In this document: positions 44,804 through 45,046 of the stretch, in pieces
How the letters are laid out: the number at the start of each line of letters is the position of its first letter
Position numbering within the stretch: the first letter of the stretch is position 1
From: Escherichia coli
GTDB taxonomy: Bacteria > Pseudomonadota > Gammaproteobacteria > Enterobacterales > Enterobacteriaceae
NCBI RefSeq assembly: GCF_003334385.1
Contig: NZ_QOWN01000022.1
Reading direction: 5' to 3' (one strand)
DNA: 64,000 nucleotides
Notes under the pieces: model-generated
What the model saw: only the letters and a program-made list of their open reading frames with translations
Databases searched by the model: none
Told to the model about the DNA's origin: nothing
Translations under genes and position numbers: made by a program

Positions 44804-45046
44804 TGTTTTATCAGGCTCCTCCAGATAATTGTCGTCATGCCGGAAACCCCTGGCGGGGCTATTTTACCGCGACAATTCATTCAGATCATCAATAGTCAGG
44901 GAAGGAAGTAGCAACATTAGCTAACTAATCAATGCGTTGATTGTAAATCCAGCTAAGAGGTGAGGTTTTCAGAGCAGACAACGGTGAAATGTCATGGTAT
45001 TGTTACGTTTAGGTAACAAGAAATTTGTCTGCACAAGGATTACATC

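Follow-up and report, generated by a model that had tools for sequence, protein, structure and literature searches.

A conserved inverted repeat midway between the ynaI and ynaJ promoters of Escherichia coli as a candidate IHF site

What, if anything, recognizes the short inverted repeat that lies between the divergent genes ynaI and ynaJ of Escherichia coli is the question considered here. The window, by which we mean the whole stretch of DNA analysed (64,000 nucleotides), is E. coli chromosome and carries mppA, ynaI, ynaJ, uspE and fnr. The two genes and the repeat between them, of which the former were taken from the RefSeq annotation of identical DNA, are placed as follows:

43772..44803, minus strand: ynaI, low-conductance mechanosensitive channel, 343 aa
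45047..45304, plus strand: ynaJ, DUF2534 inner-membrane protein, 85 aa
44927..44942, no strand assigned: inverted repeat AATCAA-TGCG-TTGATT (AATCAATGCGTTGATT) in the ynaI-ynaJ intergenic region, the dyad under study

An earlier note on this DNA had described the element as a perfect 16-bp palindrome in the ynaI/ynaJ divergent promoter region. The location is correct in this strain, with gene identities supplied by RefSeq, and differs in K-12, where IS5 lies between the dyad and ynaI. The distances given there also hold, since the dyad is 105 bp from the ATG of ynaJ (45047) and 124 bp from that of ynaI (44803). As for the palindrome, the coordinates and the complementary 6-bp arms stand, but the spacer TGCG is not self-complementary, and the 16-mer, read on the opposite strand, gives the different sequence AATCAACGCATTGATT; because of this asymmetric spacer the description was an overstatement. 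A true 16-bp palindrome, AATCAATGCATTGATT, is found in the divergent E. coli AST85 (L051) and e1-39 (L053), in which the spacer is TGCA, the sites concerned being those equivalent to 44926 and 44936.

Inverted repeats of this size are common in the region. With a 4-bp spacer between 6-bp arms, 27 occur in the window where approximately 15.6 would be expected; seven with arms of at least 6 nt fall within the 243-bp intergenic region, and when the local 65-bp segment is shuffled, a repeat with 6-bp arms arises in 10% of cases (P = 0.10). Judged as a dyad alone, the ynaI/ynaJ element is no more than chance would provide. The pattern ATCAA-N4-TTGAT occurs once in the window when matched exactly and six times with one mismatch, against 3.0 expected. 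Two perfect 8-nt inverted repeats, both longer in the arm than the dyad, were also seen in the same intergenic region: GCAGACAA/TTGTCTGC (44974-44981 and 45025-45032) brackets the ynaJ promoter, and AATTGTCG/CGACAATT (44827-44834 and 44870-44877) brackets the ynaI promoter.

The position of the dyad relative to the two promoters depends on the following elements:

44854..44866, minus strand: ynaI core promoter, with -10 element TAAAAT (44866 to 44861) and transcription start site (TSS) G at 44854
44847..44858, no strand assigned: GC-rich dyad CCCC-TGGC-GGGG, covering the discriminator and transcript start of the ynaI promoter (-4 to +8)
44975..45011, plus strand: ynaJ core promoter, with -35 element CAGACA (44975-80), extended -10 element TGgTATTGT (44995-45003) and TSS A at 45011
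44999..45019, minus strand: ArcA box TTGTTACCTAAACGTAACAAT over the ynaJ TSS, a neighbouring element separate from the dyad (from the supplement of Park et al. 2013; the window sequence is identical)

The ynaI TSS, MG1655 position 1395973, corresponds to 44854 in the window and is the only experimentally validated one according to the Reg-Seq supplement, which relays it from Mendoza-Vargas 2009. It falls 7 nt downstream of TAAAAT, the RNA polymerase footprint in Reg-Seq agrees with this core promoter and contacts of RNA polymerase alone were seen there, and the sigma70 ChIP-seq peak of ynaI maps to about 44839 (Myers et al. 2013). The core promoter sequence TATTTTAC is unchanged in 24 orthologous regions. 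For ynaJ, the TSS is placed at 45011 because the published ArcA site spans -12 to +9, and the sigma70 ChIP-seq peak maps to 45016 (Myers et al. 2013). The pair CAGACA-N17-TGgTATTGT, kept in all 24 aligned regions, is read by us as the putative -35 and extended -10 elements of this promoter. The dyad centre (44934.5) thus lies at -76.5 from the ynaJ TSS and at -80.5 from the ynaI TSS, within 2 bp of the midpoint between them (44932.5).

The GC-rich dyad, which had been noticed earlier at about 44855, was confirmed at 44847-44858, straddling the ynaI TSS. As its span from -4 to +8 begins before the TSS, the ynaI mRNA does not include the whole hairpin. Comparison across genera yielded no consensus RNA structure for this dyad or for the ynaI 5' UTR. 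The 51-nt ynaI 5' UTR folds moderately (-14.3 kcal/mol, z = -1.85).

The arms of the dyad contain the pentamers of FNR half-sites, and the earlier note had accordingly placed it near the FNR/CRP family as a plausible dimeric regulator site while adding that it is not a canonical FNR box. The latter remark is right: the arrangement is ATCAA-N4-TTGAT, with half-sites facing outward, and not the inward TTGAT-N4-ATCAA. The dyad has its pentamers and its 4-bp spacing in common with an FNR box, but its everted half-sites could not be read as a pair by one dimer, and on a direct reading neither has an adjacent partner half-site at N4 spacing. That an FNR-like dimer nevertheless uses these pentamers as an operator of the FNR/CRP family would be favoured by their identity to FNR half-sites, by the fnr gene 1.5 kb away, by the dependence of ynaJ expression on FNR and oxygen (Myers et al. 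2013) and, on the CRP side, by the inclusion of ynaJ among the CRP targets predicted by genomic SELEX. The FNR binding data are unfavourable: no ChIP-chip or ChIP-seq peak was reported at ynaI or ynaJ in K-12, and neither a peak nor a PWM-predicted FNR site at these genes appears in Tables S5 and S6 (Myers et al. 2013). The FNR-like matches of the window are all located elsewhere, and no CRP-like TGTGA-N6-TCACA with up to three mismatches was found in 44804-45046.

The oxygen response of ynaJ, moreover, already has an explanation. A strong ArcA ChIP-seq peak with an ArcA box at -12 to +9 was described for this gene, which was derepressed 3.4-fold in an arcA mutant (Park et al. 2013), and direct ArcA repression at that site accounts for the response. 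Aerobic cells have a sigma70 peak at ynaJ about 9-fold higher than that of anaerobic ones, the ratios for wild-type aerobic versus anaerobic K-12 in Table S12 are 2.5 for ynaJ and 0.40 for ynaI, and sigma70 occupancy at both genes shifts in the same sense (Myers et al. 2013); from these ratios and occupancies it follows that ynaI and ynaJ respond to oxygen in opposite directions. The ynaJ promoter and the overlapping ArcA box are common to Escherichia, Citrobacter and Salmonella. TGTTA repeats are likewise present upstream of ynaJ in Enterobacter, which suggests, from the sequence pattern, that ArcA control of ynaJ may be ancient. Although the ArcA box belongs to the same intergenic region as the dyad and ArcA is a documented regulator of ynaJ, the box is built of TGTTA direct repeats and stands at a distance of 65-90 bp on the right of the dyad, and no ArcA half-sites were found within the dyad. 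Given the outward half-sites, the missing FNR peak or predicted site, and the lack of a CRP-like match, we rejected an FNR/CRP operator, a reading that we regard as scarcely credible; of the earlier proposal, the conserved half-sites and free spacer expected of a dimeric site survive, but the link to this family does not.

Comparison with relatives changes the picture that the dyad gives when judged alone. A total of 47 ynaJ loci were fetched from other species, and the promoter alignment comprised 24 regions. In Escherichia, Citrobacter and Salmonella, ynaI and ynaJ are divergent and separated by approximately 244 bp, an arrangement not observed in Enterobacter and its relatives. Across genera, both core promoters and the ArcA box are kept but the dyad is not; it was not found in the aligned ynaJ upstream regions of Citrobacter, Salmonella or Enterobacter. 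When dyad symmetry at the equivalent place was considered irrespective of sequence, most Citrobacter and Salmonella had no significant dyad, and only the C. braakii clade had a strong one. In that clade (L017, L018), the segment aligned to 44915-44945 holds a far stronger palindrome, AGCGCTATTT-tcggcg-AAATAGCGCT, with 10-bp arms, a length reached by none of 300 shuffles.

Within the genus, seven Escherichia lineages were compared (the window, divergent E. coli, L003, L004, L005, E. whittamii and E. albertii). ATCAA is unchanged in all seven, TTGAT has one change apiece in two of them, and all four positions of the spacer vary (TGCG, TGCA, TCTG, CGAG, TGGG, TATA). Variation in the intergenic region is greatest in some 7 bp on the left side of the dyad and some 25 bp on its right, and the arms are the sole invariant stretch inside its most variable 45 bp. 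Invariant columns make up 8/10 in the arms versus 5/35 in the flanks (Fisher p = 2e-4, a test that ignores shared ancestry among what are about four independent lineages), and cells that differ from the window make up 2/40 versus 66/140 (p = 2e-7, with shared ancestry again ignored). Among the sampled E. coli variants, SNPs occur in the spacer or flanks and none in the arms. Kept half-sites around a free spacer are the classical signature of a protein-binding site, and this pattern of substitutions argues for a functional one here.

Before binding data from the laboratory strain are brought to bear on this question, a peculiarity of K-12 needs to be considered. One further feature is relevant:

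44921..44928, no strand assigned: CTAACTAA, two tandem IS5-type target sites

In K-12, the CTAA at 44921-24 carries an IS5 insertion, and the dyad begins 2 nt past the duplicated CTAA, so that IS5 separates it from ynaI. This junction was found in 350 of 5426 complete genomes, which are essentially the K-12 laboratory lineage (L001/L050). In FDAARGOS_943 (L002), a different IS5-family element occupies the adjacent CTA (44925-27) and abuts the dyad. In the remaining matched genomes, the arrangement is that of the window, with no interruption. An insertion hot spot was considered and rejected, as only these two independent events, in the K-12 lineage and in FDAARGOS_943, were detected. The latter strain is also without 10 bp (gatcatcaat) of the conserved ynaI -35 block (about 1545-1560 in L002, about 44884-44893 in the window). 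Nearly all experiments on the ynaI/ynaJ region have been done in K-12, and because IS5 lies 2 nt from the dyad, published K-12 data upstream of ynaI do not test it.

Which protein might be involved is suggested by a match that the earlier note had missed. IHF, a heterodimeric nucleoid protein, introduces a bend of about 160 degrees into DNA. Its core consensus is WATCAANNNNTTR (PMC1874591), and ATCAA-N4-TTG is precisely this core. Two exact matches overlap within the dyad:

44927..44939, plus strand: IHF core match AATCAATGCGTTG, exact to WATCAANNNNTTR
44930..44942, minus strand: IHF core match AATCAACGCATTG, exact, in reverse orientation

The core is read on both strands because ATCAA-N4-TTGAT is symmetric. 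In the 64-kb window, WATCAANNNNTTR has seven matches against 2.65 expected, two of the seven being those of the dyad. The WATCAA element is present as AATCAA on both strands, followed 4 bp 3' by the TTR element as TTG, also on both strands and kept in six of seven lineages; L003 has CTGAT, that is, CTG for TTG, and this single base breaks both IHF orientations. Four other Escherichia lineages carry the core at an identical offset, -119 relative to the ynaJ ATG: L004, L005 and L006 in both orientations and E. albertii (L007) in a single one. In the other genera examined, no IHF core match was found upstream of ynaJ. A free N4 between ATCAA and TTR is what the IHF consensus predicts.

IHF sites are further characterized by a pair of kinkable steps, mostly AA/TT, at which prolines intercalate 9 bp from one another, and by an optional fourth element, a 5' A-tract of 4-6 A (PMC1874591). 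No A-tract was found on either 5' side of the dyad. In the minus-strand site (GGATTTACAATCAA), a TT step stands 9 bp 5' of the AA of ATCAA, which in the register of the lambda H' site would be the place of a putative kink, and the plus-strand site has TA at this position. The lambda H' site likewise has a TT step 9 bp 5' of the AA of its ATCAA. The dyad resembles known IHF sites, such as lambda attP H' and those of many E. coli promoters, in its exact core, its four unconstrained positions and its intergenic upstream placement, but differs from them in being palindromic (with the core in both directions), in its want of a 5' A-tract, in its restriction to Escherichia and in being a candidate by sequence.

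Some observations count against IHF. A consensus match is neither necessary nor sufficient for binding, the element is missing in Citrobacter, Salmonella and Enterobacter and is therefore not essential to the conserved promoters, and IHF needs only ATCAA and TTR, which leaves over the kept last AT of TTGAT; binding in two orientations, or a symmetric dimer, would account for these two bases. IHF ChIP-chip in K-12 under anaerobic growth in glucose minimal medium gave no peak over the dyad (Myers et al. 2013): the nearest peaks, at 1392853-1393174 and 1402582-1402777 in v2 coordinates, are approximately 2 kb and 7 kb away from the dyad (1395269-84). This missing peak is weak evidence because it concerns a single condition and because the K-12 site abuts a multicopy IS5. 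On balance, a candidate IHF binding site with an architectural role is the most likely reading of the dyad, and we hold it tentatively; IHF occupancy there, and any effect on transcription, we infer. As a candidate, it is an ordinary site of a well-known kind, so far without annotation.

Two other readings are the main rivals of IHF. The dyad may have arisen by chance and have no function of its own, its conservation reflecting a few related lineages or an unrelated constraint, which we consider somewhat unlikely. The abundance of comparable dyads in the window, in the intergenic region and among the shuffles is what such a view expects, and so are the disappearance of the element outside Escherichia while both core promoters persist, the want of any reported IHF or FNR ChIP signal in K-12, the tolerance by K-12 of the IS5 that, at 2 nt from the dyad, disconnects it from ynaI, and the neglect of phylogenetic non-independence by the Fisher tests, with only about four independent lineages behind them. 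However, arms kept around four varying spacer positions are hard to obtain by drift alone. The same arms, preserved over both 5-bp halves and hence beyond the ATCAA and TTR that IHF uses, with the spacer free, would suit the operator of an uncharacterised symmetric dimeric factor that co-regulates ynaI and ynaJ in Escherichia. Its central placing between the two TSSs also fits, and symmetry is raised in several lineages: in AST85 and e1-39 through the spacer, and in L004 and L006, where ATCAAC-GA-GTTGAT extends it. Nevertheless, class I activators do not canonically bind with centres at -76.5 or -80.5. ATCAA-N4-TTGAT and the 16-mer found no mention in the literature searched. No E. coli factor is known to have such a motif, and in a by-eye comparison with the consensus sequences of Fis, CpxR, SlyA, the MarA/Rob marbox, PhoB, the LacI family and the GntR family, none appeared to fit at the right spacing. 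Reg-Seq reported no transcription-factor sites at PynaI, which is no real test since in the K-12 context the dyad is 1.2 kb away. We judge such a dimeric factor unlikely, below chance origin in our estimation.

A structure in RNA or DNA, rather than a protein site, was also considered, as a stem kept around a variable loop would be expected of a hairpin as well, and the minus-strand 46-mer folds marginally better than shuffles (z = -1.7). Yet the dyad is upstream of both mapped TSSs, which makes a role at the level of DNA likelier than one at the level of RNA; the plus-strand fold is no better than shuffles (z = -0.8), the two arm changes are not compensatory, there is no T-tract, a terminator scan made no call at the dyad, and other genera have no conserved dyad symmetry here. 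For a DNA cruciform, the 6-bp arms were judged too short for extrusion. An RNA hairpin or terminator was rejected on account of the position upstream of the TSSs, the weak fold z-scores, and the lack of a T-tract and of covariation, and a hairpin or cruciform explanation is altogether very improbable.

If IHF does occupy the dyad, its U-turn at the midpoint would fold the DNA back so that the promoter arms of ynaI and ynaJ approach each other, and the bend would set the contacts of upstream DNA or of RNA polymerase alpha subunits with each promoter. IHF would then act as an architectural modulator and not as a signal-sensing switch. A bolder possibility, which we regard as decidedly improbable, is a genus-specific symmetric operator at the midpoint, bound by a dimeric regulator or by IHF in two orientations, that reciprocally couples ynaI and ynaJ and is hidden in K-12 by IS5. 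If true, this operator would couple the anaerobically favoured ynaI with the aerobically favoured, ArcA-repressed ynaJ; since IS5 breaks up the region 2 nt from this operator in K-12, no work on that strain could have revealed the coupling.

The importance of the dyad itself is modest. Of more practical use is the caveat on the K-12 IS5: what ChIP, Reg-Seq and TSS mapping show in K-12 does not describe the native region upstream of ynaI as approximately 93% of E. coli genomes have it. If bound, the dyad would provide one more architectural site for a poorly studied divergent pair that encodes a minor mechanosensitive channel and a small membrane protein.
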